Origin: Thermoanaerobaculia bacterium | GTDB taxonomy: Bacteria > Acidobacteriota > Thermoanaerobaculia > Gp7-AA8 | Direction of reading: 5' to 3' | Length of the DNA: 64,000 nucleotides | NCBI GenBank assembly: GCA_035544675.1 | Contig: DATKCA010000283.1 | Location: 2,097 to 66,096 of the forward strand | Shown here: in pieces, positions 9,526-60,871 of the stretch | How positions within the stretch are numbered: the stretch's first letter is position 1 | Layout: each line of letters starts with the position of its first letter | Position numbers and translations under genes: made by a program | Notes under the pieces: model-generated | The model's input: only the letters and a program-made list of their open reading frames with translations | The model's database searches: none | Told to the model about the DNA's origin: nothing

Positions 9526-9595
9526 GTGGCGAAACCTACCGCATTCTTGTGTCACAGGTTGCAAAAAACCGGCAGTCTTGAGCACGATAGGAAGC

Positions 9596-12491: not shown

Positions 12492-12494
12492 ACA

Positions 12495-14388: not shown

Positions 14389-14392
<4 letters not shown>
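13598..14392 (+). CDS. livG: ABC transporter ATP-binding protein (LivG)
   Basis: Walker A GPNGAGKTT, ABC signature, LivG-type insertion. Confidence 0.9.
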
Positions 14393-15099
<707 letters not shown>

Positions 15100-15156
15100 G
15101 CCGGACCCGGAACCCTATTTGCACTGCCCGTTACAGATTCGGCAGAGGAGACTGAT

Positions 15157-43430: not shown

Positions 43431-43437
43431 CGTGTGG

Positions 43438-43473
43438 CAGGCCTCGGGCCTCGGGCCCCAGGCCCGAGGCCCC
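43438..43473. terminator. GC-rich hairpin (GGCCTCGGGCCTCGGGCC-CCA-GGCCCGAGGCCCC) between convergent dnaJ and TPR genes; REP-type bidirectional terminator candidate
   Basis: Perfect-ish 13-bp stem read directly. No U-tract. Confidence 0.55.
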
Positions 43474-43479
43474 ATTCGA

Positions 43480-44307: not shown

Positions 44308-44439
44308 GTGCTCTCCTTAGTTCGTGAACGATGGATTCTACCGCTGGCAAAGTTGGTCGCCGCTCAGGGATCCGCTGTGATCCCCATCAATTCGGGAGAG
44401 CATCGGTAGGATCGAGGTTCCCTAGGGGCCCCTGACATC

Positions 44440-45288
44440 ATGATCGACTACCTCCTCGAGATCTCCTTCGACGCCGGGGACGCCGCGCTGGAAGAAGAGA
44501 TTCTGACGCGCCTTTTTCTCACCGGCAGCAGCGGCAGCGCGGCCGTCGAGGCCGCCGGCAGGGCCACGATCAGCGCCTGGTTCGGCTCGGTCGCGGAGCG
44601 GGACGCTGCCGCGGAAGATCTCCGCGATCTCGACGTGGCGGTCACCGCGAGAGAGGGGCAGCGCGCCGACTGGCTCGATCTGTATCAGCAGTCGCTGCAG
44701 CCGATCCTGATCGGCGAGCGGTTCATCGTCGCTCCCGACGGGGCGCTCATCGCCGGCGACCGGACGCGCCTGCCCATCGTCGTGCCGCAGGAACAGGCCT
44801 TCGGCACGGGGTCGCACGAGACGACGGCGCTCTGCATCGAGATGCTGGAGAAGGTCGATCCCGCCGGCGCGCGAGGGCTGGACGTCGGAGCAGGGAGTGG
44901 CATCCTGGCCATGGCCATGATCCGCCTCGGCGCGACGAAGGTCGTGGCGTTCGACAACGACGCCGATGCCTACGGCGCGCTCCGCGACAATCGTTTTCGG
45001 AACGGCATCGGGGAAGAGGCCCTGGCGCTGTTCATCGGGGGAGTGGAGTCGCTGCGCGGCGGAGCGTTCGACGTCATCACGATGAACATCATCCCCGAGG
45101 TGATCTTGCCGCTTCTGCGCAGCGTGGCAGCTCGCCTGGGCGAGAAGGGAACACTCGTTCTCAGCGGAATTCTGACGTCACGCCGCGACGAGGTCGTGGA
45201 AGCCGCCTCGAGGCACGATCTAGAATTATTTCGCGACGATGAGAAGGGCCAGTGGTGGTGCGGCGCGTTCGTGCCGCGGAGAAAATGA
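44440..45288 (+). CDS. prmA: ribosomal protein L11 methyltransferase
   Basis: FGTGSHETT, LDVGAGSGILAMA, VAFDND motifs of PrmA. Confidence 0.8.
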   Translation: MIDYLLEISFDAGDAALEEEILTRLFLTGSSGSAAVEAAGRATISAWFGSVAERDAAAEDLRDLDVAVTAREGQRADWLDLYQQSLQPILIGERFIVAPDGALIAGDRTRLPIVVPQEQAFGTGSHETTALCIEMLEKVDPAGARGLDVGAGSGILAMAMIRLGATKVVAFDNDADAYGALRDNRFRNGIGEEALALFIGGVESLRGGAFDVITMNIIPEVILPLLRSVAARLGEKGTLVLSGILTSRRDEVVEAASRHDLELFRDDEKGQWWCGAFVPRRK

Positions 45289-45330: not shown

Positions 45331-46488
45331 ATGCAGGTCGTCCTCCAAGGGAACCTCACGAAATTCCCGCTCTCGCAGTTGCTCACGCTGTTGAGTGAGC
45401 ATTCGCACAGCGGCACGCTCGACATCGAGTCTGGTGCGAGCCGTGCGCGCGTTTTCATCGACGGCGGAAAGGTGATCTTCGCCGAGTCGAGCGATGGCAC
45501 GGCGGGCAATGCCGGTGAGGCTGTCGTCCGCACGTTCGAGTGGCCGGACGCGCAGTTCACGTTCCTTGACGGCATGTCGCTCCCGGACAAGGCCACGCGC
45601 GTGACGCTCGACGTGGAGTCGATCGTCGCGGAGGCGGCCAAGCGCGCCGAGGGAGGGTATGCCGACTACGCGATGTTCCGGGTGATCGACAATCCCGCCG
45701 CGCAGGAGAAGATCACGATCGCGCCGGAGGAATTCACGCTGCTCTTCAAGATCGGCATGGGAAAGACGTTCGGCGACCTGGTGAGCGAGCCGGGCGCGAC
45801 CCGCCGCGCCACCGGCGCGAAGCTGAAGATTCTCGAGAAAGCCGGTCTCGTGCTGCGCGTCGACCAGGCTGCACCGAGCATGATACCCGGCGCGTCGCAG
45901 AACACCGCCGAGACCCCGCGGCCGAAGGGCCGTGAAGAGCGGCGTCCACGCGCCCAAGCGCCCGCCGAGGGAGTCGAGAAAACGGTCTTCGCCCCGAAAG
46001 TGGATATGGCGGACGCGACGCAGTTCACACCGCCTCCCCCTCCCCCTCGCCAGCCCACTGACGAGATCCCGGCTCCCCTGGCCACCGAGAAGACGCAGGC
46101 CGGCGAGGTTCCCGTGCCGCCCGTGGCATCCGCGCCTCCCCCTCCGATCCTCGGCGACCCGAAGAACCTGTTCGGATCGCTCACGCCCGACAGCGGCGAT
46201 ACCTGGCCGCTGGTCGACAACGAGTACACGATCGGCCGCGACGACACGAACAGCATCCCCGTGCCCGACGGCAGCATCTCGTCGAAACACGCCCGTCTCC
46301 TCAGGAATGAACAGGGCTTCTGGGTCGAAGACCTCGGAAGCCGCAACGGGACCTTCGTCAACGGCGAGAAGGTGACGGACAAGCGACTTCTGTCGAACGG
46401 CGACCTGGTCCGCTTCGGCAAAGTGATCATGACCTTCCATATGGCGCAGGACAGCAGCTCGGACCAGACCGTCGTCGAGTCGAAATAG
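45331..46488 (+). CDS. DUF4388 (PATAN) domain + C-terminal FHA domain protein
   Basis: N-terminus GNLTKFPLSQLLTLLSEHSHSGTL is the DUF4388 hallmark. Pro-rich linker. FHA motifs (TIGRDD..SSKHARL..GSRNGTFVNG). Confidence 0.75.
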   Translation: MQVVLQGNLTKFPLSQLLTLLSEHSHSGTLDIESGASRARVFIDGGKVIFAESSDGTAGNAGEAVVRTFEWPDAQFTFLDGMSLPDKATRVTLDVESIVAEAAKRAEGGYADYAMFRVIDNPAAQEKITIAPEEFTLLFKIGMGKTFGDLVSEPGATRRATGAKLKILEKAGLVLRVDQAAPSMIPGASQNTAETPRPKGREERRPRAQAPAEGVEKTVFAPKVDMADATQFTPPPPPPRQPTDEIPAPLATEKTQAGEVPVPPVASAPPPPILGDPKNLFGSLTPDSGDTWPLVDNEYTIGRDDTNSIPVPDGSISSKHARLLRNEQGFWVEDLGSRNGTFVNGEKVTDKRLLSNGDLVRFGKVIMTFHMAQDSSSDQTVVESK

Positions 46489-46511
46489 CGGCCAAACGTT
46501 CAAAAAAGACA

Positions 46512-48890
46512 ATGAAATTTGATCTAGTGATTGTCGGGTCCGGCCCGGCCGGTCTCGCCGCCGCGTCTCACGCTCACACCAACGGGATGAAGTACGTGCT
46601 GCTCGAGCGCGTCGATCACCTGTCGGACACGATCTATCAATATCAGGCTCGCAAGTACGTCATGGCCGAGCCGATGATGATCCCGGCGCGCGGCGACGTC
46701 CCGTTCGAGGCGGGATCGCGCGAGTCCATCCTCGAAGCCTGGGACAGGCACGCCGCGGACCGCCAGGTGAACATCGAGCTGAAGGCCGAGGTGAACTCGG
46801 TCGAGAAGACCGCGGACGGATTCGTCGTCGCCACGAAGGCCGGCAACAAGTACGAGACCGCGGCCGTGGTACTGGGGATGGGTACGCAGGGGAACCCGAG
46901 AAAACTCGGCGTGACCGGCGAGGATTTGCCTAACATCCGCTACCGCCTGAACGACGCGAAGGAACACCAGGAGCAGGACATCCTCGTGGTCGGCGCGGGC
47001 GACTCCGCGCTGGAGATCGCGGCCGCCCTCTCGGATGAGAACCGAGTCGGCCTGGTCGTGCGCGGCGCGGAGATCACGCGCGCGAACGAGGTGCTGACGC
47101 GCGACGCGCTGTCGCGGCAGGCCAGCGGCCGCATGACCATCTACTTCAACACGACGGTGAAGGAAGTCGGCGAGGGCTACGTCGATCTCAACGTGCGCGG
47201 GGACACCACGCGCATCCCCAATGAGCTGATCTTCCTCAAGCTGGGCGCCGACGCGCCGCGCAAGTTCCTCGAGAAAATCGGGATCAAGTACAGCGGACCG
47301 GGTGCCGACGCCCGGGCCATGCTGAGCCCGGTGCACGAGACGACCGTGCCGAAGCTGTTCCTCATCGGCGCGGCGAGCGGCCGCGACCTCATCAAGCTCG
47401 GCATGAACCAGGGCTATGAAGTCGTCGAGCACCTGATGGGCCGCGAGGTCGAGCCGGCCGACGAAGCAGTGCTCAGGGAGCGGCTGCCGTTCTGGGAAGG
47501 CACGGTCCGCGAGCGCATCGCCGCGATTCGGTCCCGCGCGCCGCTGCTCGCCGCCGCGGACGAACAGCAGCTCCGCGACACGTTCCTGTCCGCTCGCGTT
47601 CGCGAGTACAAGAACGGCGAGATCATCATCCGTCAGAACGACTACACCAACGACTTCCTCATCGTGGCCTCGGGGCGCGTCGAGCTCTATCGCCGGCCCG
47701 AAAAAACAAACGCCGACGTGAAAGTCGCCGAGATCACCGCCGGCAACTTCTTCGGCGAGATGAGCCTCATCTCCGGACGCCGCCGTACGGCCACGGCCAA
47801 GGCCATGGGGAACACGCGCGTGATCGAGATCCCGCGCAAGGCCATGCTGCGTCTTCTGGCGTCCTCGCCGAAGGCGAAAGCGCTCATGGACCAGGCCTTC
47901 CTGCTCCGCGCGTTCGGCGGCTACCTCTTCCCCGGCATCGCCGAGGGGGCGCTCGGCGAGCTGGTCGAGAAGGCCGTCGTCGAGAACATCGGCAAAGACG
48001 CGGTGGTGTTCAAGGAAGGCGATGCAGCGGAAGCGTTCTACCTGATCCGCAGCGGCATGATGAAGATCGCCAAGCAGTCGGGCGACAAGGAAGTCGTGCT
48101 CTCGTACCTGGTGGCCGGCAACTTCTTCGGCGAGGCCGCGCTCTTCTCCGATGCCGAGCGCACCGCTACCGTCAGCGCGATCTTCCCGGCCGAGCTGGTG
48201 AAGCTCTCCAAGAAAGACTTCGACAACTTCCTGGGCATCCGTCCCGAGCTGCGCGAGCTCCCGCTGCGCAAGCTCGAGGAGCGCCGCATCGCCGGCCTCA
48301 TCGCCGAGGCCACGCCGGGATCCGGCAACATCCTCTCCGACCTCATCCGCGAGGAAGTGGTCATGGGAACGCAGACCCTGGTCATCGACGAGCACCGCTG
48401 CGTGCGATGCGGGAACTGCGTCCGCTCCTGCGAGGGCGTGCACGACGACGGTCAGGCCCGCATCTCCCTCACCGGCATCAAGTTCTACAACCTCCTGGCG
48501 CCGAACTCGTGCTGGCAGTGCGAGAACCCGATGTGCATGCTGGACTGCCCGCCCGACGCCATCTCCCGCGATCCGCGCGGCGAGGTCTACATCAAGAGCA
48601 ACTGCATCGGCTGCGGCAACTGCGAGCGCAACTGCCCCTACGGCAACATCTTCATGGTCCACAAAGAGCCGAAGAAGTCGATCACCGGCTGGATCAAATC
48701 GATCTTCGGAAAAGGCAAGCACGAGGACGCGATCGAGCAGACCTTCGCCGTCAAGTGCGATCTCTGCCGTGGTATCTCCGGCGGCCCCGCATGTGTCCGC
48801 GGCTGTCCGACCGGAGCGGCAATCCGACTGACACCGGAGCAGTATCGGGAGACCCTGGAAGAGCTGGTCATTTCGCGAGGGGAGAGGTAG
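46512..48890 (+). CDS. fusion protein: thioredoxin-reductase-type FNR-like flavoprotein + 2x cyclic-nucleotide-binding domains + 4x [4Fe-4S] ferredoxin motifs
   Basis: Two Rossmann GxGxxG (VIVGSGPAGLAAA; LVVGAGDSALEIAAAL) without the TrxR CxxC. Two CAP_ED signatures (FFGEMSL..RRTATAKA; FFGEAAL..ERTATVSA). Four CxxCxxCxxxCP-like motifs (CVRCGNCVRSCE, CWQCENPMCMLDCP, CIGCGNCERNCP, CDLC...CVRGCP). Confidence 0.8.
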   Translation: MKFDLVIVGSGPAGLAAASHAHTNGMKYVLLERVDHLSDTIYQYQARKYVMAEPMMIPARGDVPFEAGSRESILEAWDRHAADRQVNIELKAEVNSVEKTADGFVVATKAGNKYETAAVVLGMGTQGNPRKLGVTGEDLPNIRYRLNDAKEHQEQDILVVGAGDSALEIAAALSDENRVGLVVRGAEITRANEVLTRDALSRQASGRMTIYFNTTVKEVGEGYVDLNVRGDTTRIPNELIFLKLGADAPRKFLEKIGIKYSGPGADARAMLSPVHETTVPKLFLIGAASGRDLIKLGMNQGYEVVEHLMGREVEPADEAVLRERLPFWEGTVRERIAAIRSRAPLLAAADEQQLRDTFLSARVREYKNGEIIIRQNDYTNDFLIVASGRVELYRRPEKTNADVKVAEITAGNFFGEMSLISGRRRTATAKAMGNTRVIEIPRKAMLRLLASSPKAKALMDQAFLLRAFGGYLFPGIAEGALGELVEKAVVENIGKDAVVFKEGDAAEAFYLIRSGMMKIAKQSGDKEVVLSYLVAGNFFGEAALFSDAERTATVSAIFPAELVKLSKKDFDNFLGIRPELRELPLRKLEERRIAGLIAEATPGSGNILSDLIREEVVMGTQTLVIDEHRCVRCGNCVRSCEGVHDDGQARISLTGIKFYNLLAPNSCWQCENPMCMLDCPPDAISRDPRGEVYIKSNCIGCGNCERNCPYGNIFMVHKEPKKSITGWIKSIFGKGKHEDAIEQTFAVKCDLCRGISGGPACVRGCPTGAAIRLTPEQYRETLEELVISRGER

Positions 48891-48918
48891 GAGAAGGGCG
48901 CCCCGAGCCCAAAGAACG

Positions 48919-49749
48919 ATGGCAGTCCCACGATCCGGACCCACTTGGCGTCGCATTTTCGCCGTGCTGCTTTTTGCCGTGGCGGTCTCGTACGCGTACT
49001 ACGCGCGCGATGAGTTTCCGCACGGCGGGACGAAGATCGGTCTGACCCTCGGCATCATCGGGCTGCTGCTCATTCTCCTGCTCGCGTACTTCGGGATCCG
49101 GAAGCGCTCCTACCGCTCCACCTTCGGCACGCTCGAACAGTGGATGCAGTCCCACATCTACCTCGGCATCCTCGTGTTCGTGATCCTGCTGCTGCACACC
49201 GGCGGAAGGTTCAACGACCAGATCGCCGTGACGACGTTCATCCTCGTCGGAGCGGTGGTCCTCTCCGGGATTCTGGGAGCGATCCTCTATGTGACGGTCC
49301 CCCGGATGCTGACCGAGGTGGAGAGCAACCTCACCATCGAGGAGATCTCGGACAACGCCAACCAGCTGGCGCGGCAGATGGCGCGCACCGCCTCCGGCAA
49401 GTCGGCTCCGTTCCAGCGCATCTACGATGAGCTGATCTACGAGACGCGCCCGGGGTGGCTGGCCGGCTGGCGCCTGGTCATCTACAGCGCTCGAAAGAAG
49501 GGGCAGACCTCGTCGGACTGGGCGAATCTGCTGCGGCTCGTGCCGAAAGAGGAGCAGGACGAGCTCCGGTCCCTTCTGGTGACCTCGCGTCAGCGGAAGG
49601 AGCTGCTGCTTCGCCTGATGTATCAGCAGCGCTACAAGAACATCCTCGAGGCGTGGCTCTACATCCATGTTCCGTTCACGATCGCGTTGCTCGTCTTCTC
49701 GGCTCTGCACGTCGCGGCCGTTTTCTATTACGGGAGCGTGAGGTGGTGA
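48919..49749 (+). CDS. integral membrane protein, putative dihaem cytochrome b (ferric-reductase-like, two H-x13-H pairs)
   Basis: 5 predicted TM helices. TM3 SHIYLGILVFVILLLH and TM5 IHVPFTIALLVFSALH each carry two His spaced exactly 13 residues apart, as in bis-His haem b ligation of FRD/NOX/MsrQ-type proteins. Confidence 0.5.
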   Translation: MAVPRSGPTWRRIFAVLLFAVAVSYAYYARDEFPHGGTKIGLTLGIIGLLLILLLAYFGIRKRSYRSTFGTLEQWMQSHIYLGILVFVILLLHTGGRFNDQIAVTTFILVGAVVLSGILGAILYVTVPRMLTEVESNLTIEEISDNANQLARQMARTASGKSAPFQRIYDELIYETRPGWLAGWRLVIYSARKKGQTSSDWANLLRLVPKEEQDELRSLLVTSRQRKELLLRLMYQQRYKNILEAWLYIHVPFTIALLVFSALHVAAVFYYGSVRW

Positions 49750-49753
49750 GCGC

Positions 49754-52087
49754 ATGAGTTACGTCATCCAGCTCGTCCAGGGCCGGGCCCTCAAGCTCAC
49801 GCAGGTTCGTGCTGACGTGCTCCGCATCGGACGCGGAACCAATGCCGACGTCCGCTCGGACAATCCTGCCGTCGCGTTCGAGCACGCCATCATCGAGAAG
49901 GATTCCGGCGGGTACTACACGATCATCGACAAGGGCAGCATCACCGGCACCTACGTCAACCGCAAGCCCGTGGAGCAGCAGCGCCTCGGCAAGGGCGACG
50001 TCATCGAGGTCGGTGACCTGCGCATCGAAGTTCAGGTTGCGGACACCACCAAGCCGCTCTTTCTCCGCCAGCTCTCTTCGCGCCGGCAGGCCGCGGCGCC
50101 CGGATATGCAGACGTTGGCGAGGACACCGGTTCCGGGTATCAGGCTGAAGCAGGAACCGGCACGATCGCAGCCGAGAAGGTCGACTACGTCGATGCCTAC
50201 GCGCTGCGGCGTCCCTGGCTGCACAAGTCGACCGTCGCATCGATCCTCCTGATCATCGCCCTGGGCGTGGTCGGCGAGGTCACGCAGGAGGACAAGCAGA
50301 GCGTGTTCATGCCCGGCGGCGTCTCGTCGGCGCACTCGCGCGCCCGCGACGCCCAGGGCAATAGCATCGCCGAGCGATGCGCCGCCTGTCACACTCCGTG
50401 GAAGAGCATCACCGACGACAAGTGCGCACAGTGCCACGCCATGGCGCCGCATGCCACGCACGAGCTGAAGGCGCCGGCATGCTTCACCTGCCACTCCGAG
50501 CATCGCGGGCTGGCCAGGCTGGCGGCCATTCCCGACGTGCGCTGCAACGAGTGCCACAAGGACCTCAGCAAGCACGTCAAGACGAGCCCGGACGAGCTGG
50601 CCAAGCTGCGTTTCGCGGATGGCCGTTACAGCTTCGCGGAGATCCAGAAGATCAACGCATTCGGCGACGTGCATCCCGAGTTCGTCTTCCCGGCCGATAC
50701 GAACACGCTCAAGTTCAACCACAAGCTGCACCTCGCCCCGAACGGCGTCTTCAACGCCACGGGGCGGCGCGAAGTCCTGGCCTGTAACGACTGCCATAAC
50801 CTGGTGGACGTCCGCGGCAAGGTCGATCCGGTCCAGCTCCAGTTCGATACTCACTGCCAGCGTTGCCACAAACTGACGTTCGACCCGCGCTTCCCGCGGG
50901 CCGAGGCGCCGCACGGTGGCGATCCGGGGCTGGTGTACGGATTCGTTCTGGCCACGTACGCGGGGAACACCGAGCTGGCGGGCAAGTCCGCCGTCGAGGT
51001 GCGGCGCCTCTTGTCCCAGCGGCAGGTGGTGGCACCCGATCAGCGCGCGCTGCTCAATGCCGAGCAGGTCATCAAGACCAAATGCGACAAGTGCCATGAC
51101 CTGGAACGGCGCGGCCCCAACAATCAGCTTGCCGCCGTGCCGCCGAAGATCCCCACCACGTGGTTCGCCGCCTCCGACTTCGAGCACGGCGCCCACAAGC
51201 AGATCAGCTGCGAGCAGTGCCACGACAAGGTCCGCCAGAGCGTCCCCACCAGCGACGTGCACATGCCGACGCGCGAGGACTGCACGGAATGCCACGGGAC
51301 GAAGGCCGCGCCCGGTGTCAAGCAGACATCGAGTGCATGCGTGGCCTGTCACGACTATCATTTGCGGACTGATCAGACCAAACCGATAGTATTGGCAGCG
51401 GGACTCGCGGGCACGGCAGGGCCGGCGGGCGCACTGCTCGATCCCGCCAGCGGAGGGCGAATGCTTCAGACCATTCTCATCGCAGCAATCATTGTCCTGC
51501 TCTTCGTGGTCTTCATCCCGCTCGGCGCCGCGCTTTATCAGCGTCTGAAACCGTCGCGCACGGCCACTCCGCGAGGAGCCGCTCCGGCCAAGGGACCCAC
51601 GGTGAAGGTACCGCCGATGTCCGCTCCGCCCATGCAGGCCCCTTCGGCTCCGGCCGAGCCGCCGCAGCGCGCATCCGCTCCCCGTCCGCCGGCCGAGGCC
51701 GCGCCCACACAGATGCTCAATCTCGACGCCATCAAGCCTCCGGCCTCGGGCCCCGTAGCGGGCGGTGCGACGGAGATGCTGCAGTGGTACGGAATGCTCC
51801 GATGCACTTCCGGCCCGCTGGACGGGCAGAATTTCATCATCGAGGAGGACGGCTTCTACATCGGCCGCGATTCGACGATGTCGAAAGTCGTGATCAACGA
51901 CGGGCGCGTGTCGAAGAGGCACGTGAAGATCCAGCCGCGAAACGGGAAGGTGTTCGCCATCGATGAAGGATCGACGAACGGCACGTTCCTCACCGCGGGC
52001 GGGCAGCGCATCACCGAACACCAGCTCAAGCGCGGGGACACTCTGATTCTGGCCGACAACGCTGCCACATTCGTGTATCAGATCTGA
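49754..52087 (+). CDS. inner-membrane protein: N-terminal FHA - TM - periplasmic decahaem cytochrome c domain (10x CxxCH) - TM - Pro-rich linker - C-terminal FHA
   Basis: FHA1 in aa 1-95 (IGRGTNADV..FEHAII..ITGTYVN). TM helices at aa 161-176 and 570-596 with positive-inside flanks. CxxCH at aa 209, 224, 243, 264, 344, 368, 444, 486, 510 and 529. FHA2 in aa 676-777 (YIGRD..SKRHVKI..GSTNGTFL). Confidence 0.8.
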   Translation: MSYVIQLVQGRALKLTQVRADVLRIGRGTNADVRSDNPAVAFEHAIIEKDSGGYYTIIDKGSITGTYVNRKPVEQQRLGKGDVIEVGDLRIEVQVADTTKPLFLRQLSSRRQAAAPGYADVGEDTGSGYQAEAGTGTIAAEKVDYVDAYALRRPWLHKSTVASILLIIALGVVGEVTQEDKQSVFMPGGVSSAHSRARDAQGNSIAERCAACHTPWKSITDDKCAQCHAMAPHATHELKAPACFTCHSEHRGLARLAAIPDVRCNECHKDLSKHVKTSPDELAKLRFADGRYSFAEIQKINAFGDVHPEFVFPADTNTLKFNHKLHLAPNGVFNATGRREVLACNDCHNLVDVRGKVDPVQLQFDTHCQRCHKLTFDPRFPRAEAPHGGDPGLVYGFVLATYAGNTELAGKSAVEVRRLLSQRQVVAPDQRALLNAEQVIKTKCDKCHDLERRGPNNQLAAVPPKIPTTWFAASDFEHGAHKQISCEQCHDKVRQSVPTSDVHMPTREDCTECHGTKAAPGVKQTSSACVACHDYHLRTDQTKPIVLAAGLAGTAGPAGALLDPASGGRMLQTILIAAIIVLLFVVFIPLGAALYQRLKPSRTATPRGAAPAKGPTVKVPPMSAPPMQAPSAPAEPPQRASAPRPPAEAAPTQMLNLDAIKPPASGPVAGGATEMLQWYGMLRCTSGPLDGQNFIIEEDGFYIGRDSTMSKVVINDGRVSKRHVKIQPRNGKVFAIDEGSTNGTFLTAGGQRITEHQLKRGDTLILADNAATFVYQI

Positions 52088-52096
52088 GGGATATCG

Positions 52097-53806: not shown

Positions 53807-55797
53807 GAGTCTCCCTCGTCGCCCTCCTCCTCCTTCTCACAGCCCTCACCATCAGCGCCCAGGTCACGATCAATCGTGACCGCGCCGTCTTCACCGGCGA
53901 AGTCCCCTTCACGCTCTGGGGCACCGCTCCGCCGAACTCGGTCGTGACGATCACGGTCGACTCTCCGGGCCTGCAGCCGGTGACGACGGCGGCGGGTCCG
54001 GACGGCTCGTGGAGCGTGCTCTGGACGCAGCCGCTGCGGACCGGCGTGTACGGGATTACCGTGACGGCGGGCGGCGCGACGTCGACGCAGGACCTGCGCG
54101 TGCAACTGGAAGGCAACGTGGCCCGGCAGCCCCAGATCGTCGAAGAGCCGCGTTTCGCCATCCCGCGCGTTTACGACATGGATGAGAACACGGAGCTGAC
54201 GGACCGGTGGCGGATCGTGCCGCCTCCGTACGAGCTCGACGAGCCGCCGCGGGGGCGGAAGATCGGCGACCGTGGCGCGACGCTCGATCCGTACAACAAG
54301 AACCTGCTCAAAGGCGATTACCCCATCCGCGGCAAGGACACGTTCCTCGTGCTGACGGGAATCTCCGACACCACCATCGAGTCGCGGTCTCTGCCGACGC
54401 CTTCCGGTCCCAGCGCCGCCCGGGTGGACAGCTTCACGTTCTTCGGCGACAACGATCAGGGCATGGTGATCCAGAACCTGATCCTCACGGCCGATCTCTA
54501 TCAGGGGCTGACCACGTTCCAGCCGGTACGGCAGCGCTTCAGAGTCACGGCAATCGGGAACTATACCCACCTGAACGTCGCCGAGAACTCGGTGGTGAAG
54601 CCGGACGTGCGGCGTGGCACCGAGCGAAACGACGGCCGCCTTTCGGTGCAGGAGTTCTTCTACGAGCGCAAGCTCGCCGACCTCAGCCCTTACTTCGACT
54701 TCGTGTCGGTCCGGGCCGGCTCGCAGCAGTTCTCCAGCGACTTCCGCGGCTTCGTCTTCTCGGACACGAACCTGGGCGTGCGCCTCTTCGGCAACTACGG
54801 CTCGAACCGCTATCAGTACAACCTGGCCGCCTTCGAGCGGCTGGAGAAGGACACGAACAGCGGCCTGAATCGAAACTTCGTTTTCCGCGAACAGCAGGTG
54901 GGCGTGGCCAACGTCTACATCCAGGACTTCATCCGGAAGGGGTACACGCAGAGCTTCTCGATCACTCATCAGCGGGACCGGCCGGGCGAAAAGCTGCACT
55001 TCGATCGCAACGGGATCCTGGTACGTCCCGCTCCGATCGGCTCGTTCACCCCGCACGACATCGACGCGACGTACGTCGGCCAGGCCGGGTTCGGACACTT
55101 CGGCCGGCTGAATGTGGATCACGCGCTGTACTACGTGTTTGGCAAAGACAGCCACAATCCGATCGCCGGGCCCGATCCGGAGCTGCGGCGAGGCGACGAG
55201 ATCGACATCAGCGCGGGGATGGCGGCGGTCGAGCTGTCGTACGACCGCGACTGGCTCCGGCCGCGCTTCGCGTTGTTCTACGCGTCCGGCGACAGCAAGC
55301 CGCGCGACCGTACGGGCACCGGCTTCGACTCGATCTTCGACGGTCCCGCCTTTGCCGGCGGCGGCTTCAGCTTCTTCAACCGCCTGGGCATCCGTCTGTC
55401 GCAGACCGGCGTCGCGCTCGTGGATCGCGGCAGCCTCATCACCTCGCTGCGCAGCAGCAAGGACGAGGGGCAGTCGAACTTCGTCAACCCGGGCGTGCAG
55501 CTCGTCAGCCTGGGGCTGGACATCGAGGTCACGCTGCGGCTCAAGGCCATCCTGACCGCGAACTACATCAGGATGGACAGCACGGCTGCGGTCGAGGAGC
55601 TTCTGTTCCAGGGGGACATCGACAACGAGCTGGGCGCTGATCTGAGCGTCGGCCTGCGGTACCGGCCGTTCTTCACTCAGCAGTGGATCGTGGTGGGCGG
55701 CATCGCCGGATTCATTCCGGGACGGGGCTTCAAAGACATTTACGAGAGCGACAACCCGCTCTATCACGTGTTCTCCAACATCATTTTGCAGTTCTGA
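53782..55797 (+). CDS. putative outer-membrane beta-barrel protein (~670 aa) with N-terminal Ig-like domain
   Basis: Signal peptide (LVALLLLLTALTISA-QV). Alternating beta-strand pattern over ~500 aa. C-terminal ...NIILQF (terminal Phe, OMP sorting signature). Size comparable to MtrB/PioB-class porins. Confidence 0.5.
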   Translation: MWRWTVRLRVSLVALLLLLTALTISAQVTINRDRAVFTGEVPFTLWGTAPPNSVVTITVDSPGLQPVTTAAGPDGSWSVLWTQPLRTGVYGITVTAGGATSTQDLRVQLEGNVARQPQIVEEPRFAIPRVYDMDENTELTDRWRIVPPPYELDEPPRGRKIGDRGATLDPYNKNLLKGDYPIRGKDTFLVLTGISDTTIESRSLPTPSGPSAARVDSFTFFGDNDQGMVIQNLILTADLYQGLTTFQPVRQRFRVTAIGNYTHLNVAENSVVKPDVRRGTERNDGRLSVQEFFYERKLADLSPYFDFVSVRAGSQQFSSDFRGFVFSDTNLGVRLFGNYGSNRYQYNLAAFERLEKDTNSGLNRNFVFREQQVGVANVYIQDFIRKGYTQSFSITHQRDRPGEKLHFDRNGILVRPAPIGSFTPHDIDATYVGQAGFGHFGRLNVDHALYYVFGKDSHNPIAGPDPELRRGDEIDISAGMAAVELSYDRDWLRPRFALFYASGDSKPRDRTGTGFDSIFDGPAFAGGGFSFFNRLGIRLSQTGVALVDRGSLITSLRSSKDEGQSNFVNPGVQLVSLGLDIEVTLRLKAILTANYIRMDSTAAVEELLFQGDIDNELGADLSVGLRYRPFFTQQWIVVGGIAGFIPGRGFKDIYESDNPLYHVFSNIILQF

Positions 55798-55811
55798 GGG
55801 ACGAGGCTTAG

Positions 55812-58800
55812 ATGAAGAAGACGTTCTTCGTAGTGCTCATTGCGGCGGCGGTTGCGGCGACGTTGTTTGCCGCCACTCAGCAGGGTGAGCCCGTCCGCGC
55901 GCCTCAGACCTCGCCGCTCATGGGCCAAACCCAGGCCCAGGCGGACGAGAAGAGCAGCGGCTGTCTTTCGTGTCATGAAGGCATCGAGCCGATGCACGCA
56001 TCCGCGGCGGTGAAGCTCGGATGCACGGACTGCCACGGCGGGAACGCGGGGGTCATGGCCAGTCGCATCGACGACGAGGACGCCAAGAACCGCGCCCACA
56101 TCCTGCCCCGGAACAAGGAGATCTGGAAGACGTCCAGGAATCCCGTGGGAACGTACACGGCCCTGCTGAAGGAGTCTGCCGAGTTCGTGAAGTTCATGAA
56201 CCCGGGCGATCTGCGCGTGTCGAAGGAAACGTGCGGCGATTGCCATCCGCAGCAGGTGGCGGCCGTGCCGCGAAGCACGATGTCCACCGCCGCCGTCTTC
56301 TGGGCGGCCGTCTCCTATGCGAACGGCCTGATCAGCAAGAAGCCCGGCCTGCTCGGCGAGAGTTACAACCGGGAAGGGAATCCACAGATCCTCCGCCCGG
56401 CCGTGCCGCCCACGCCCGAACAGATTGCCAAAGGCGCGCTGCCGCTCGTCGTCCCTCTGCCTCGTTGGGAGATCTTCCAGCCAGGGGAGTACTTCCGCGC
56501 GTTCGAGCGAGGCGGTCTCCTGAACAACACCATTCCGCCGGAAGTCGGCAATCCGAATCCGCTGCTGGGCGACGAAGCAGGGAAGCCGGACATCCGCGTC
56601 AGCAACCGCGGCCGCGGCACGGGAAGCCGTGTCTCGCCGGGCCTGATCAACCTGCAGAAGACCCGTCTCAACGATCCGCACCTCTCATTCCTCGGGACCA
56701 ATGAGCATCCCGGCGACTATCGCTCCAGCGGCTGCACGGCATGCCACGTGGTGTACGCGAACGACCGTGATCCGCTTCACTCCGGACAGTGGGCGAAGTA
56801 CGGGCACGTCGGCCTGTCGCAGACCGGCGACAAGACGATCCCGAAAGACGAGAAGGGTCATCCCATCAAGCATCAGTTCACGCGCGCCGTGCCGACGTCT
56901 CAGTGCATGAGCTGTCACATGCACCAGCCGAACTCGTTCGTGAACACGTACCTCGGCTACCTGATGTGGGACTACGAGAGCGACGGCGAGCTGATGTGGC
57001 CGAAGGAGCAGAAGTACCCGACTCCCGACGAGCGCCGGAAGAGCCTCGATCACAACCCGGAGGGCGCCGCGGTCCGCGGACTCTGGACGGACATCGACTT
57101 CCTGGAGCGCGTCAGCAGCCTGAACCCGCAGGCCAAGAACACGCAGTTCGCCGACTACCACGGCCACGGCTGGAACTTCATGGCCGTGTTCAAGCGCGAC
57201 AAGAAGGGCAACTTCCTCGACGCCAACGACACGATCGTGTCGAAGGACGACCCCGAGAAGTTCAAGAAGGCCGTGCACCTGCGTGACATCCATCTCGAGC
57301 GCGGCATGCACTGCTCCGACTGCCACTTCTCGCGGGACGAGCACGGCGACGGCCAGTTGTACAGCGAGTACGGAACGAACATCGAGATCGAGTGCCAGGA
57401 CTGCCACGGGCGGCTCGATCGCAACACCAACCTGCGGACCTCCGGGCCGCTCGCGCCGCCGGGAGGAACGGACCTCCGTCTGGGGACCACGCCGTTCGGC
57501 CAGCGTCGCTTCATCTGGTCCAACGGGATCCTCTATCAGCGCTCGATGGTGAACCCGGGCATGGAGTGGGTGGTGCGCCAGGTCAGGGACACCGTCACGC
57601 GGGGTCACCAGCACTACAACGACAAGTCGCATTACGCGAAGACGGTGCAGCGCGGCGGCGCCGGGTGGGGCAACACCAGCAACGTCGCTCACAGCGAAGA
57701 CAAGATCACGTGTTACGCCTGCCACTCCTCGTGGATGACGTCGTGCTTCGGCTGCCATCTCCCGCAGGAGCAGAATGCCAGGTCGAACGCCCTGCACTAC
57801 GAAGGGACGGAGACGCGCAACTACGCCTCTTACAACCCCCAGGTTCTCCGCACGGATGTGTTCATGCTCGGCGTGAACAGCCCGCTCAAGGGAGCCAAGA
57901 TCGCTCCGGTGCGCTCATCGAGCGCCCTGACGCTCAGCTCGATCAACCCGAACCGGCAGCGCATCTACATCCAGCAGGCTCCGATCTCCGCGCCGGGCTA
58001 CAGCAGCCAGGCCTTCAACCCGCACGTTCCCCATACGGTGCGCAGCAAGGAGACGCAGGCCTGCAGCTCGTGCCACATCAGCGAGGCGAACGACAACAAT
58101 GCCTGGCTGGCCCAGACATATCTGCAGGGAACGAACTTCGTCAACTTCGTCGGCCGGTTCGCCTGGGTGGCCACGGGTGACGACGGGTTCGAAGCGATTG
58201 CGGTGACGGAGTGGGAGGAGCCGCAGGCGGTCATCGGGTCGTATCTGCACAAGCTGGCCTATCCCGACTGGTACGCGAACCATCAGAAGCGCAAGAAGGA
58301 GCTGGCCGAGGGATATCACCATCATGGCCACGCCAAGATGGTGCAGTTGCGGGGCGAGTATCTGTATGCCGCGAACGGCGACAGAGGCTTCGAGGCCTAC
58401 GACGTCGCCAACGTCGACAACAAGGACTTCTCCGAGCGCATGATCTCGGCGCCGTCGTCGCCGATCGGGCAGCGCACGTTCATCAAGTCGAAGTACGCCG
58501 CGGCGTTCTCGCTGCCGACGAACATGCCCATCGACCCGACGCGCGAGACGACATCGATCCCCGAGAACCAGGAACAGCCGTGGCATCCGCTGTACCGCTA
58601 TGCGTACATCGCCGACAAGTATGAGGGTCTCATCCTCGTCGACGTCACGACGCTGACCGACGGCGATCCTCTGAACAACTTCTTCACGCGCGCGCTGACG
58701 TGGAATCCGGAAGACCGGCTGCACGGCGCGCAGTCGATTCACGTGGCCGGGCGGTGGGTGTACATCGGCACGGAGAAGGGGCTGGCCATCGTCGACGTCG

Positions 58801-59543
58801 ATCAGCCCCTGGCTCCGAAGCTCGTGGCCTACATGCCCGAGATCAAGAAGGCCACCGGCATCGCGGTGCAGTTCCGGTATGCCTTCGTGACCGACGGCCA
58901 GGCCATTCACACAATCAACGTCACCGATCCGACACGGCCGCGTCTGACCGCGTCCCTCCCTCTGGAGGAAGCGCGCAATGTCTACGTGGCCCGGACCTAC
59001 GCATATGTGGCGGGTGGGAAACAGGGTGTGATCATCGTGGACATCGAGCGCCCGGAGGCGCCGAAGATCGATCAGATCTACAACGCCGACGGCGAGCTGC
59101 ACGACGTGTACGACGTCAAGGTGGCCTCTACGAATGCCAGCACGTATGCATACGTCGCCGACGGTGAGCACGGCATCAAAGTCCTGCAGCTCTCCTCACC
59201 GGAGTGGGGCCCGAACTACGCCGGCTTCAGTCCGCGGCCGATGCCGCAGCTGATCGCCAAGCGGCATACGCACGGCAAGGCCGTGTCCATCTCCAAGGGA
59301 ATGGACCGCGACCGCGCCGTCGATGAGAGCGGCAACCAGGTCTCGATCTTCAACCGCATCGGGTCACGGCCGATGACGACCCCGGAACTGCAGCGGCTGT
59401 ACATGCGCGACGGCCGCATCTACACGGTCAGCGATAGACCTTCCACGCGACCACAGGGAAGCACGACGGTCACTGAGAACCCTGCGACCAAGCCGCAGGT
59501 ACCAGTGGTCCAGAAACCTGCCACGAAGCCGGTGACGAGGTGA
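55812..59543 (+). CDS. secreted decahaem c-type cytochrome fused to LVIVD-repeat beta-propeller region
   Basis: Signal peptide. Ten CxxCH (CLSCH, CTDCH, CGDCH, CTACH, CMSCH, CSDCH, CQDCH, CYACH, CFGCH, CSSCH) in first ~780 aa. C-terminal 450 aa with LVIVD-like repeats (GLILVDV, GLAIVDVDQP, YAFVTDGQAIHTINV, YAYVAGGKQGVIIVDI, YAYVADGEHGIKVLQL). Confidence 0.8.
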   Translation: MKKTFFVVLIAAAVAATLFAATQQGEPVRAPQTSPLMGQTQAQADEKSSGCLSCHEGIEPMHASAAVKLGCTDCHGGNAGVMASRIDDEDAKNRAHILPRNKEIWKTSRNPVGTYTALLKESAEFVKFMNPGDLRVSKETCGDCHPQQVAAVPRSTMSTAAVFWAAVSYANGLISKKPGLLGESYNREGNPQILRPAVPPTPEQIAKGALPLVVPLPRWEIFQPGEYFRAFERGGLLNNTIPPEVGNPNPLLGDEAGKPDIRVSNRGRGTGSRVSPGLINLQKTRLNDPHLSFLGTNEHPGDYRSSGCTACHVVYANDRDPLHSGQWAKYGHVGLSQTGDKTIPKDEKGHPIKHQFTRAVPTSQCMSCHMHQPNSFVNTYLGYLMWDYESDGELMWPKEQKYPTPDERRKSLDHNPEGAAVRGLWTDIDFLERVSSLNPQAKNTQFADYHGHGWNFMAVFKRDKKGNFLDANDTIVSKDDPEKFKKAVHLRDIHLERGMHCSDCHFSRDEHGDGQLYSEYGTNIEIECQDCHGRLDRNTNLRTSGPLAPPGGTDLRLGTTPFGQRRFIWSNGILYQRSMVNPGMEWVVRQVRDTVTRGHQHYNDKSHYAKTVQRGGAGWGNTSNVAHSEDKITCYACHSSWMTSCFGCHLPQEQNARSNALHYEGTETRNYASYNPQVLRTDVFMLGVNSPLKGAKIAPVRSSSALTLSSINPNRQRIYIQQAPISAPGYSSQAFNPHVPHTVRSKETQACSSCHISEANDNNAWLAQTYLQGTNFVNFVGRFAWVATGDDGFEAIAVTEWEEPQAVIGSYLHKLAYPDWYANHQKRKKELAEGYHHHGHAKMVQLRGEYLYAANGDRGFEAYDVANVDNKDFSERMISAPSSPIGQRTFIKSKYAAAFSLPTNMPIDPTRETTSIPENQEQPWHPLYRYAYIADKYEGLILVDVTTLTDGDPLNNFFTRALTWNPEDRLHGAQSIHVAGRWVYIGTEKGLAIVDVDQPLAPKLVAYMPEIKKATGIAVQFRYAFVTDGQAIHTINVTDPTRPRLTASLPLEEARNVYVARTYAYVAGGKQGVIIVDIERPEAPKIDQIYNADGELHDVYDVKVASTNASTYAYVADGEHGIKVLQLSSPEWGPNYAGFSPRPMPQLIAKRHTHGKAVSISKGMDRDRAVDESGNQVSIFNRIGSRPMTTPELQRLYMRDGRIYTVSDRPSTRPQGSTTVTENPATKPQVPVVQKPATKPVTR

Positions 59544-60871
59544 TAGCGATGAAGAGACTCATTCCGGGTGCGGTCGTAGCTCTCCTGTTGATAGCTTCCG
59601 TGGCCGCTCAGCAGCCAGCCACCACTCCTCCGCCCGCGCCCACCGCCACTCCACCGGCAGGAACGGTCGGCAAGTACGTCGGCGTGGCCTCGTGTGTGAA
59701 CTCCGGCTGCCACGGCAGCACCGAGCCGCTCAACCAGACTCGGGCGCTTCAGAACGAGTACTACACGTGGTTGAACAACGACCGTCACGCGCAGGCGTAC
59801 AACGTCCTGTTCAACAACGTTTCGGCGCGCATCGCCAAGAACATGCGTCTTCGCAGAAGGGCGTATGAAGAGAAGATGTGCCTGGACTGCCATACCACCA
59901 ACGTTGCTGCCAGCCAGGTCGTCGGCAACATCGACCCCGAGGACGGCGTGCAGTGCGAGGCCTGTCACGGGCCGGCCAGCGGCTGGCGCGACGAGCACAC
60001 CCAGCTCGGATGGACGCACGCAGACTCGGTCCGGCGCGGTCTGAACGATCTCCGCGACGTCTCCCGCCGCGGCGAGCAGTGCCTCACCTGCCACCTCGGT
60101 AATGCCAGCAAGGAAGTCGACCACGACCTCATCGCGGCCGGGCATCCCATCCTGGCCTTCGAGCTCGACAACTACACCGAGTCGATGCCGCCGCATTGGA
60201 CCGCGGGCCGCGAGTCCCACGGACTCCGGGCCTGGGCCGTCGGACAGGTCGTGAAGTTCCGTGACTCCCTCGACAACGTGGCTCGACACGCCCGCGGCGA
60301 CAAGTGGCCGGAGTTCGCGGACATGAGCTGTTACAACTGCCATCACGGGCTGAAGGCCAGCACGTGGAGGCAGGAGCGCGGCTGGCCGGATCGTCCCGGC
60401 CTCCCGGCCTGGAGCCCGCAGCACTGGGCGGCCCTGCGCATCCTGATCGCGAGGATCTCGCCGCAGGTGCGCAACGAGCTGGACCCGGTCGTCCGCGACC
60501 TCTCCATCGCCGTGGCGCGGATGAACAACCGTGATGCCATCGTGACCAGCGCTCAGCGGGCCCGCCGCCTCGTCGAGCCGCTCGTGGCCAGGGCCGAGGC
60601 CATCTCCTGGAATGACGCCGACGTGCGCACGATGATGCGCGCCATCGCCGACGACCGCGAGTTCATCCTGGCCTCCGACGTTCACGCCGCCGAGCAGGCC
60701 GCGCTGTCCCTGCAGAGCCTTTCCACGACGCTGACCCGCCGCGACCGCAGGCTGCTGCGCTCGACCATGACCCGCGCCATCGACGCGCTCTTCGAAGAGC
60801 TGGAAAGCCGCGACGACTACGACCCGGCCAGGTTCGCGCAGAAGCTGCAGGCCGTCAGAGCAACGCTGTAA
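59540..60871 (+). CDS. secreted pentahaem c-type cytochrome (4x CxxCH + 1x CX4CH)
   Basis: Signal peptide + Pro/Thr linker. CVNSGCH (CX4CH), CLDCH, CEACH, CLTCH, CYNCH. Start overlaps upstream stop. Confidence 0.72.
   Translation: MIAMKRLIPGAVVALLLIASVAAQQPATTPPPAPTATPPAGTVGKYVGVASCVNSGCHGSTEPLNQTRALQNEYYTWLNNDRHAQAYNVLFNNVSARIAKNMRLRRRAYEEKMCLDCHTTNVAASQVVGNIDPEDGVQCEACHGPASGWRDEHTQLGWTHADSVRRGLNDLRDVSRRGEQCLTCHLGNASKEVDHDLIAAGHPILAFELDNYTESMPPHWTAGRESHGLRAWAVGQVVKFRDSLDNVARHARGDKWPEFADMSCYNCHHGLKASTWRQERGWPDRPGLPAWSPQHWAALRILIARISPQVRNELDPVVRDLSIAVARMNNRDAIVTSAQRARRLVEPLVARAEAISWNDADVRTMMRAIADDREFILASDVHAAEQAALSLQSLSTTLTRRDRRLLRSTMTRAIDALFEELESRDDYDPARFAQKLQAVRATL

Follow-up and report, generated by a model that had tools for sequence, protein, structure and literature searches.

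A widespread, uncharacterised multihaem gene cluster and its possible role in regulated electron export across the cell envelope

Introduction

The conduits by which electrons cross an outer membrane have been defined by three elements: a periplasmic multihaem cytochrome, an integral outer-membrane beta-sheet protein and a lipoprotein redox partner (PMC6148476). A further cluster, Uet of 'Ca. Tenderia electrophaga', in which multihaem cytochromes and an outer-membrane barrel are accompanied by NHL beta-propellers, has been proposed from genomics (bioRxiv 10.1101/2022.05.06.490989). The subject of this report is a set of eight genes, labelled g6-g13, at positions 45331-60871 of a 64,000-nucleotide stretch of DNA (the window) from a soil metagenome-assembled genome (MAG) of a Thermoanaerobaculia (Acidobacteriota) bacterium with 65% G+C. 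Comparison across genomes provided strong evidence that these genes are one conserved redox system, a multihaem envelope electron-transfer system that is unusually widespread and wholly uncharacterised. We favour, with moderate confidence, the view that the eight genes encode one regulated electron-export chain, which would run from NAD(P)H or ferredoxin through a putative dihaem b cytochrome to multihaem c cytochromes.

A sequence-only reading of the window had proposed nine co-directional genes that laid out a plausible complete route from cytoplasmic NAD(P)H to the cell exterior, parallel to MtrA-MtrB-MtrC and wired to FHA signalling. Its statement that no system of such composition had been described has held: literature searches found no published description of the cluster, the sole paper found on LVIVD and multihaem proteins concerns a different system (Uet), and searches of the PDB found no solved structure of a relative of g8 or g12. 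The domains it listed passed their Pfam thresholds for g6, g7, g9, g10, g12 and g13, the exception being the ferric-reductase match of g8. The Mtr parallel and the arrival at the exterior fared less well, as described with the outer genes.

The gene cluster and its conservation

The eight genes are plus-strand open reading frames (ORFs) that fill 45331-60871, packed as tightly as had been claimed, with gaps of 4-28 nucleotides and two overlaps, one of them the 4 nucleotides by which the start of g13 overlaps the end of g12.

45331..46488, plus strand: g6, cytoplasmic regulator with DUF4388/PATAN and FHA domains
46512..48890, plus strand: g7, cytoplasmic flavo-iron-sulfur protein with two cyclic-nucleotide (cNMP)-binding domains
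48919..49749, plus strand: g8, inner-membrane protein, putative dihaem b cytochrome
49754..52087, plus strand: g9, bitopic-hairpin inner-membrane decahaem c cytochrome
52097..53806, plus strand: g10, secreted tandem GlcG/HbpS-like (PF03928) protein
53782..55797, plus strand: g11, outer-membrane protein with an Ig-like domain and a predicted 18-strand beta-barrel
55812..59543, plus strand: g12, secreted 1243-residue decahaem c cytochrome with a C-terminal LVIVD beta-propeller
59540..60871, plus strand: g13, secreted c554-type pentahaem c cytochrome

Relatives of the cluster were sought by scanning one genome per species with an alignment of the barrel protein g11, and from the at least 590 stretches that were confirmed, the best 80 were taken as loci (numbered with an L), whose six-frame ORFs were then searched with the window proteins. 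Co-occurrence was counted in the 35 species loci in which the barrel gene was flanked on either side by 9 kb or more. The decahaem gene g12 adjoins g11 in every one of these (35/35) and g10 is present beside the barrel gene in 33/35, while g7, g8 and g9 were found in 24/35 loci each, g13 within the flanks in 14/35, and g6 in 7/35, all of the Thermoanaerobaculia type. The gene set is shared by hundreds of genomes that differ in their flanks, and is therefore not a chance arrangement. About twenty genomes of the Thermoanaerobaculia type, their flanks unrelated, preserve the order g6-g13. Elsewhere the same genes are rearranged: the Nitrospira order is g13-g7-g8-g9-g10-g11-g12, the Terriglobia order is g10 (minus strand), g11 and g12 (plus), g9-g8-g7 (minus) and g13 (plus), and in a planctomycete and a "Deltaproteobacteria" MAG the set forms separate or convergent blocks. 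Loci of Omnitrophota and KSB1 carry at least g10-g11-g12. The set recurs, then, in at least six phyla (Acidobacteriota, Nitrospirota, Planctomycetota, the phylum of the "Deltaproteobacteria" MAG, Omnitrophota and KSB1), and the gene-neighbourhood conservation that had been named as a check on the proposal is found across them. In a reciprocal scan, metagenomes were searched with an alignment of close homologues of g8, and every g8-centred locus with enough downstream DNA was found to carry g9-g12. It is the retention of the set across phyla, despite such rearrangement, that strongly supports a functional linkage of its genes.

The family is both large and nameless. The barrel falls into 1,504 clusters at 50% identity, g12 of Nitrospira and of Thermoanaerobaculia are 57-60% identical, and all members listed in three homologue searches under a source name bear the annotation hypothetical, the one exception being an odd label, "flagellar basal body rod protein FlgC". 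Both g11 and g12 of the window are 100% identical to NCBI entries, VMS98_20115 and VMS98_20120, that are likewise labelled hypothetical.

The input side of the cluster varies in a patterned way. A cNMP-ferredoxin module accompanies g8 and g9 wherever these genes occur, and a flavin domain is fused to it in g7 only in Thermoanaerobaculia, Nitrospirota and the deltaproteobacterial locus. This domain, which the sequence-only reading had taken for a thioredoxin-reductase-type ferredoxin-NAD(P)+ reductase (FNR), is missing from the Terriglobia and planctomycete versions and is not part of the core. In six Terriglobia loci a separate, cysteine-less SthA-like flavoprotein gene stands beside the cluster; this gene and the fused flavin domain of three lineages both speak for an NAD(P)H input. 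Pyrinomonadaceae and Blastocatellia have additional small c7/MtrC-like cytochrome genes beside g10.

Several individual loci have features of their own. A PF13366 gene (PD-(D/E)XK nuclease superfamily) lies between g11 and g12 in six Blastocatellia/Pyrinomonadaceae genomes (L044, L050, L059, L065, L068 and L077; e.g., L059:2389-2952). What separates g10-g13 from the convergent g9-g8-g7 in the 'Deltaproteobacteria' MAG is a pair of DUF4331 genes together with a TPR gene (L086:15452-20408). On a 1.9-Mb contig, g7 and g12 are split into several ORFs (L001:2725-5628 and 11844-15451), reflecting either assembly indels or pseudogenes.

The inner-membrane genes

The three inner-membrane genes form the half of the proposed chain that is well supported, as a prediction, by invariant ligands, a self-consistent topology and a fusion of g7 to g8. 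The flavo-iron-sulfur input, dihaem-b-like protein and membrane-anchored periplasmic decahaem that had been read from the window have all stood up in this comparison. The first of the three proteins, g7, has the following domains.

46518-47381 (aa 3-290), plus strand: flavin/NAD(P)H domain of the thioredoxin-reductase fold, lacking a redox-active Cys pair
47601-47864 and 47949-48254, plus strand: cNMP-binding domains
48378-48866, plus strand: HydN-like 4x[4Fe-4S] ferredoxin module

These were recognised by Pfam matches above the gathering scores (Pyr_redox_3, 7e-38, and also Pyr_redox_2; cNMP_binding, 1e-42, in two stretches; Fer4 families), and by partial NCBIfam matches to YpdA (142 bits against a cut-off of 340), TrxR (73 against 343) and HydN, the last covering 159/181 positions. 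There are exactly 16 Cys in g7, which make up four 4-Cys motifs and do not vary among 40 homologues, and this module would be capable of holding four [4Fe-4S] clusters. A role as a thioredoxin or disulfide reductase was considered and ruled out, because all 16 Cys sit in the four Fe-S motifs, with none outside the ferredoxin module to serve the flavin domain. Neither a signal peptide nor a transmembrane (TM) helix is predicted for g7.

The two H-x13-H pairs that had been noted in the membrane protein g8 proved to be near-invariant. One pair, H79-x13-H93, is on one TM helix and the other, H250-x13-H264, on another, and the four His are present in 39-40/41 homologues and show no variation in a cross-phylum alignment of 18 sequences. 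The predicted topology has about five TM helices and a long basic cytoplasmic loop (aa 128-243). Assignment to a family is less direct, since the Ferric_reduct (PF01794) match of g8 is below threshold (E = 0.0035; 17.8 bits against a cut-off of 28), and a profile search of the PDB returned nothing significant, whether NOX, MsrQ or STEAP. Among 18 homologues, weak matches to Ni_hydr_CYTB (9/18, the best with E = 1.3e-5), DUF4405 (9/18) and Ferric_reduct (8/18) were obtained, all of these being families of membrane b-type cytochromes, and a putative dihaem b cytochrome is what the conserved His and these matches point to. A single ORF encodes the cNMP-ferredoxin module followed by g8 in 10 loci of Pyrinomonadaceae and Blastocatellia, a Rosetta-stone fusion that fits the N-in topology of g8 and places the ferredoxin at its cytoplasmic N-terminus.

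The third protein, g9, is predicted to thread through the membrane twice.

49823-50014, plus strand: N-terminal FHA domain
50219-50284, plus strand: TM1
50378-51352, plus strand: periplasmic 10-haem domain
51473-51529, plus strand: TM2
51806-52045, plus strand: C-terminal FHA domain

Its matches to FHA (2e-29, two stretches) and Cytochrome_C7 are above the Pfam thresholds, and all 10 CxxCH motifs lie between the two predicted TM helices, with a cytoplasm-type FHA domain at both ends. The ten motifs are kept in 30/41 homologues, and 7 haems are found in Pyrinomonadaceae and Blastocatellia. In g9, as in g13, the conserved His are sufficient for bis-His ligation of all the haems.

The same three proteins could be read as a quinone-linked respiratory branch, with g8 oxidising quinol in the manner of FdnI/HydC/CbcL to supply g9 and the periplasmic cytochromes, and with g7 acting mainly as a redox or cNMP sensor, or as an accessory, and not as the electron donor. 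In CbcL of Geobacter, a b-type domain of just this kind is coupled to multihaem c in the periplasm, the homologues of g8 match Ni_hydr_CYTB (cytochrome b561/FdnI-type) about as often as they match Ferric_reduct, and many versions of g7 are without a flavin domain. We nevertheless consider this reading improbable: a four-cluster HydN-like ferredoxin with 16 invariant Cys has the makings of a wire and is not a typical sensor, it is covalently fused to g8 in 10 genomes, and the cluster is repeatedly accompanied by domains or genes of NAD(P)H flavoproteins.

The outer genes

Signal peptides are predicted for g10-g13, and in none of the four is there a lipobox. The tandem GlcG/HbpS architecture that had been proposed for g10 was borne out by its Pfam HbpS-like match (PF03928; E = 4e-26, 91.8 bits against a cut-off of 25, two stretches) and by its relatives in the PDB, EfgA/GlcG (6bws, E = 4e-9) and PduO-C; an internal DNA repeat, D1/D5, mirrors the duplication of the domain. 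For g11, an AlphaFold2 (AF2) model was built from a 108-sequence alignment, with a mean predicted local distance difference test (pLDDT) score of 74, and has the following parts.

53887-54102, plus strand: periplasmic Ig-like domain (AF2 model)
54196-54339 (aa 139-186), plus strand: conserved linker of low confidence (AF2 model)
54340-55788, plus strand: 18-strand beta-barrel (AF2 model)
55285-55494 (aa 502-571), plus strand: conserved 70-residue loop (AF2 model)

The C-terminal residue of g11 is Phe. No Pfam family matched the barrel even at E <= 1, and no NCBIfam model for it was found. It is modelled as a channel of the AlgE/OccD class, the proteins listed for it being the OccD/OprD family (about 20), MOMP, chitoporin and maltoporin. 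Among the most conserved stretches of g11 are aa 139-186 (TDRWRIxPPPYELDE...DPYNxNLLKGD) and aa 502-571 (GGGFSFFNR...SSKDEGQ), which AF2 fails to place (pLDDT below 50) and which are candidates for partner-binding or plug elements. By standard barrel geometry, the lumen of the modelled 18-strand barrel would be about 2 nm wide, compared with about 3.5 nm for 26 strands. An estimate of the charge of the lumen, 12 basic against 16 acidic residues, was too rough for calling ion selectivity.

The 1243-residue protein g12 is, as had been claimed, a decahaem cytochrome with a propeller.

Within 55962-58076, plus strand: haem motifs, 10 CxxCH
About 58155-59267, plus strand: LVIVD propeller (Pfam LVIVD, 1e-19)

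All ten CxxCH are invariant in 61 homologues, and the extra His, of which 10 are fully and 5 nearly conserved, would suffice to make each of the ten haems bis-His, which is why a role in electron transfer or as an outer-sphere reductase is favoured over a catalytic haem with an open site. An AF2 model of aa 23-1210 (59-sequence alignment, mean pLDDT 57.7) has a confidently modelled propeller and a haem domain that is entirely below pLDDT 50; Foldseek with this model returned generic beta-propellers only (BtuG, AztD, LRP6), to which no functional weight was given. No significant relative was obtained in sequence and profile searches of the PDB and no MtrC-MtrF domain match was obtained, and the NCBIfam matches are weak and partial (ExtM, 92 bits against a cut-off of 800; ExtN; ExtO). 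Identification of g12 as an enzyme of the HAO, NrfA or octahaem type was rejected, there being no similarity to these and enough conserved His for bis-His ligation at every haem.

The last gene, g13, encodes the expected pentahaem protein, one of its five motifs being Cx4CH and the other four CxxCH, with a haem-free, helical C-terminal half. It matches Pfam Cytochrome_C554 (2.8e-12) and cytochrome c554 in the PDB (1bvb, E = 3.5e-6), its match to the MtrC-MtrF domain is below threshold (21 bits against 30), and its haem motifs are 96-100% conserved in 27 homologues.

An outer-membrane barrel between decahaem proteins naturally recalls MtrA-MtrB-MtrC, and the sequence-only reading had drawn that parallel. 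The alternative that follows from it is a true trans-outer-membrane conduit, in which a cytochrome, be it g13, the tip of g9 or an N-terminal portion of g12, would sit inside g11 and a surface-exposed g12 would reduce insoluble Fe(III)/Mn(IV) minerals or humics, as the MtrCAB and Geobacter porin-cytochrome complexes do. The adjacency of g11 and g12 in 35/35 loci is what a conduit would lead one to expect, and so are the haem density of g12, about that of MtrC/OmcA with all haems apparently bis-His, and the periplasmic domain of g9, with its MtrA-like haem density and a weak match to the MtrA/DmsE family TIGR03508 (23.7 bits, cut-off 192). Segments left unplaced when g11 is modelled by itself are also expected of elements that bind a partner. 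The Mtr parallel itself is not supported, given the 18-strand model of the barrel, the lack of lipoboxes and the membrane tether of g9. To our knowledge, the Nitrospira, Pyrinomonadaceae and Pirellulaceae carriers are aerobes not known for mineral respiration. There was no match to MtrB_PioB and none at threshold level to the MtrC or MtrA families, and the lumen of about 2 nm may in addition be occupied by the conserved 70-residue loop. As far as in silico work can tell, the modelled barrel appears too small to house a cytochrome, a check that had been named for it; this is not decisive, because ExtB of Geobacter, which belongs to a genetically supported conduit cluster, is predicted to have 18 membrane strands (PMC6148476). 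Two of the three conduit-defining elements (PMC6148476) are found here, the periplasmic multihaem cytochrome (secreted g12 and g13) and the outer-membrane beta-sheet protein (g11, ending in Phe), but the third is lacking, since no redox protein has a lipoprotein signal and g10, g12 and g13 are without a lipobox. For the same reason, the complete route to the cell exterior that had been claimed remains unsupported. That putative extracellular electron transfer clusters with a barrel, multihaem cytochromes and beta-propellers have been described (Uet, bioRxiv 10.1101/2022.05.06.490989) speaks for a conduit. On balance a conduit, whichever cytochrome were to fill it, is unlikely here.

The membership of g13 in the cytochrome c554 family calls to mind the pairing of c554 with HAO, and thereby an inward flow, in which g12 would oxidise a periplasmic or extracellular reductant and pass electrons to g13, g9, g8, the Fe-S clusters and finally NAD(P)+. 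Thioredoxin-reductase-type FNR enzymes are reversible, and the direction is left free by the sequences. From bioenergetics, such a flow would oppose the membrane potential and end on low-potential [4Fe-4S] clusters, so that a donor of very low potential would be needed, and g12 has no sign of a catalytic five-coordinate haem. We regard inward flow as very improbable.

A gated electron-export chain

The reading that we favour over these is one of export. From the parts, their topology, conservation and linkage, and the fusion of g7 to g8, we infer how the cofactors would be filled, which way the electrons would flow, the order of the periplasmic steps, the position of g12 and the kind of acceptor. 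Electrons would enter in the cytoplasm at g7, passing from NAD(P)H to flavin and on to four [4Fe-4S] clusters, and would cross the inner membrane by two stacked b haems of g8, held on its four conserved His, to be collected in the periplasm by the ten c haems of the membrane-tethered g9. The c554-like pentahaem protein g13 would then relay them to g12, which, with its haems apparently all bis-His, would act as an outer-sphere reductase and not as an enzyme with an open haem site. As the terminal redox protein, g12 would be partnered with g11 and g10 and is most likely periplasmic, or docked under g11, which would have a periplasmic docking extension and whose channel would pass the oxidised substrate or the reduced product across the outer membrane. 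As substrate one would expect an oxidant in soluble or chelated form, e.g., Fe(III) or Mn(III) complexes, or redox-active organics. By motif count, the wire would comprise, besides the Fe-S clusters, 27 haems (2 b and 25 c). Gating would be provided by the cNMP-binding domains in all versions, with the FHA domains and the PATAN-FHA protein added in this lineage.

Outward flow is favoured on bioenergetic grounds, being downhill and along the membrane potential. Because the electrons would skip the quinone pool, the path would dissipate energy rather than conserve it, and such dissipation would explain why the path is gated. An export that conserves no energy would be in keeping with how heavily the path is regulated and with its presence in many aerobes. 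It points to a service function, e.g., acquiring metals by reduction, reducing extracellular or periplasmic oxidants or forming superoxide, and not to mineral respiration. A more far-reaching form of this idea would make the cluster a NOX-like but far longer exporter, quinone-bypassing and gated by cNMP and, in some lineages, by Ser/Thr phosphorylation, that draws directly on cytoplasmic NAD(P)H or ferredoxin. In soil and freshwater bacteria, most of them aerobes (Acidobacteriota, Nitrospirota, Planctomycetota), its haems would carry the electrons as far as the outer membrane or the cell surface. Extracellular Fe(III)/Mn oxides, humics or O2, the last yielding superoxide, would be reduced there, in the service of nutrient acquisition or redox chemistry and not of respiration. 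We hold this form to be doubtful.

A number of points weigh against the export chain. Its steps are put together from sequence, which by itself does not fix the direction of electron flow; g8 is below the Pfam thresholds and has no detectable solved relative; and the choice of wire over enzyme for g12 draws on a count of conserved His within a haem domain modelled at pLDDT below 50. There are few precedents for a periplasmic multihaem reductase with a solute channel of its own, and the strict pairing of g11 with g12 and the conserved disordered segments of g11 would equally suit a physical complex of barrel and cytochrome. In 11/35 loci the 10 kb around the barrel does not include the inner-membrane genes, and in the 9.1-Mb genome GCA_964656655.1 only the g11-g12 pair is present at the locus (L084:8134-15065). 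The counts, moreover, were drawn from similarity-ranked top-80 lists and come mostly from MAGs. Since g11 and g12 occur without nearby inner-membrane genes, the outer pair can presumably take electrons from elsewhere. At L084 the pair is adjoined by an SGL/NHL-type propeller gene and a sigma-54 two-component system.

Regulation by FHA and cyclic nucleotides

The proposed wiring to FHA signalling proved to be right as to the domains and wrong as to their place in the core of the system. The regulator g6 has two recognisable domains.

aa 6-106, plus strand: g6 DUF4388/PATAN domain (Pfam DUF4388, E = 1.9e-15)
aa 299-363, plus strand: g6 FHA domain, preceded by a Pro-rich linker (Pfam FHA, E = 2e-21)

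The canonical Arg, Ser-x-x-His and Asn-Gly are all kept in this FHA domain and in the C-terminal one of g9. The N-terminal FHA domain of g9 in the window is above the Pfam threshold but non-canonical, Ala and Thr replacing the canonical Ser and Asn, which makes phosphothreonine binding by it doubtful. That domain is distributed among Thermoanaerobaculia, Nitrospira and Pyrinomonadaceae, TM2 and the C-terminal FHA domain are confined to Thermoanaerobaculia-type loci, and no FHA domain was found in the Terriglobia or planctomycete versions of the cluster. The flavin/FNR domain, g6 and the C-terminal FHA domain of g9 are thus lineage-specific add-ons. The cNMP domains of g7 (cNMP_binding, 144 bits) have intact FGE...R-T-A phosphate-binding cassettes at aa 414-427 and 539-552.

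Genes for Hanks-type Ser/Thr kinases immediately precede the cluster in 5 loci, and in 5 loci there is a CHASE2 adenylate/guanylate cyclase gene at its flank, neighbours that are consistent with FHA and cNMP control in those genomes; among the window ORFs that were scanned there was no kinase, cyclase or cytochrome-maturation gene. In two Thermoanaerobaculia loci without g6, L019 and L020, a 1,156-residue Ser/Thr kinase-TPR gene is immediately 5' of g7, and nucleotide cyclase genes bracket the cluster (L019:2-3420 and 19066-21189; L020:1-3468 and 18800-21121). Elsewhere in the window, at 9269-10240 (plus strand), a Trans_reg_C DNA-binding domain is fused to FHA (EmbR-like), and this second FHA protein indicates that FHA signalling is common in the genome and not specific to the cluster.

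Flanks and composition

Upstream of the cluster are hrcA-grpE-dnaK-dnaJ, a minus-strand TPR gene and prmA (44440-45288, co-directional with the cluster), and downstream are minus-strand genes for polysaccharide deacetylase, citrate synthase and rsmE. None of these flanking genes recurs beside the cluster in the other genomes compared, and 45331-60871 is for that reason taken as its true limits. The sequence-only reading gave the number of genes as nine but listed eight; a ninth co-directional gene, prmA, lies upstream and, with the dnaK operon, was dropped as a member, neither being syntenic with the cluster elsewhere.

The genes g6-g13 have a G+C content at third codon positions (GC3) of 0.84-0.89, and their codon-position G+C is like that of neighbouring genes. 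A scan for promoters and terminators found no more sites than in shuffled sequence, an Rfam search of the window gave no match, and a repeat search detected no mobile-element boundaries, only the internal domain duplication of g10 and chance matches. A 339-residue, Arg-rich ORF at 43390-44409 (plus strand) is probably spurious, lying antisense to the TPR-repeat gene at 43480-44307 (minus strand), whose codon statistics are gene-like. The window also encodes a PAS-GGDEF-EAL c-di-GMP protein (20661-22466, plus strand) and the large subunit of a molybdopterin-binding oxidoreductase (6902-9454, minus strand), and no link of either to the cluster was seen.

Comparison with known systems

If the chain works as inferred, common bacteria of soil, sediment and freshwater have an unrecognised, quinone-bypassing export of cytoplasmic reducing power, which could have a bearing on reductive Fe/Mn acquisition, humic turnover and the unexplained extracellular superoxide of heterotrophs, and which would be a third architecture besides the Mtr-type and Geobacter-type envelope electron paths. 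Even with a soluble periplasmic acceptor, g7-g8-g9 would be a new kind of transmembrane redox complex under direct control by cNMP and phosphothreonine.

With HAO and cytochrome c554 of Nitrosomonas the cluster shares a large multihaem gene beside a c554-family gene whose product would shuttle electrons to or from a membrane cytochrome, whereas g12 has neither detectable similarity to HAO or octahaem proteins nor the sign of a catalytic haem, and the likely flow is opposite. With Uet it shares a conserved block of multihaem cytochromes, barrel and propeller; here the propeller belongs to the LVIVD type and is part of the decahaem protein itself, there is no cupredoxin or PPIase, the inner-membrane module is another, and no homology was shown.

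The closest likeness to MtrCAB/DmsEFAB of Shewanella is in the overall set of a decahaem wire, an outer-membrane barrel and a large decahaem terminal protein, with haems apparently all bis-His and, in g12, at about the density of MtrC/OmcA. The details differ at each step: the barrel is modelled with 18 strands and is AlgE/OccD-like, as opposed to the 26 strands of MtrB, the decahaem g9 has one or two TM helices that anchor it to the inner membrane and is not soluble in the periplasm, the signal peptide of g12 is type-I-like and lacks a lipobox Cys, and there are no family-level matches. The input, too, is here a flavo-iron-sulfur protein and a b-type cytochrome, and there a quinol dehydrogenase of the CymA type. 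The OmaB-OmbB-OmcB, ExtABCD and ExtHIJKL clusters of Geobacter, with ExtM-S, likewise have a barrel gene beside multihaem cytochrome genes, but g11 belongs to another barrel family, and g10 and the fused propeller are extra here.

For the inner-membrane half, the nearest parallels are Tmc, Hmc, DsrMKJOP and CbcL, in which cytoplasmic Fe-S centres, a membrane b cytochrome and a periplasmic multihaem c cytochrome are likewise joined in one path. Unlike the Fe-S subunits of Tmc, Hmc and Dsr, the one here is of the HydN type with cNMP domains, and sometimes an FNR-like flavin domain, and is not of the HdrD/CCG type; g8 is of a distinct family with His pairs on two helices, there is no NrfD/NarI quinone subunit, and the cytochrome g9 carries FHA domains. 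Judged as a ferric-reductase domain, g8 has the expected spacing of its His pairs (12-14 residues apart) without reaching the PF01794 threshold or having the six-helix core. It thus differs from NOX, FRE, MsrQ and STEAP in having five predicted TM helices and a 115-residue cytoplasmic insert instead of six helices, four Fe-S clusters would intervene between flavin and haem, and the acceptor would be a chain of multihaem c cytochromes, not O2 or Fe(III). What the cluster has in common with these enzymes are the two His pairs with 13 residues between them on two parallel TM helices, an arrangement suited to stacking two b haems across the membrane, a feed from NAD(P)H and flavin, and, if the favoured chain is right, an electron export that is tightly regulated and not energy-conserving.

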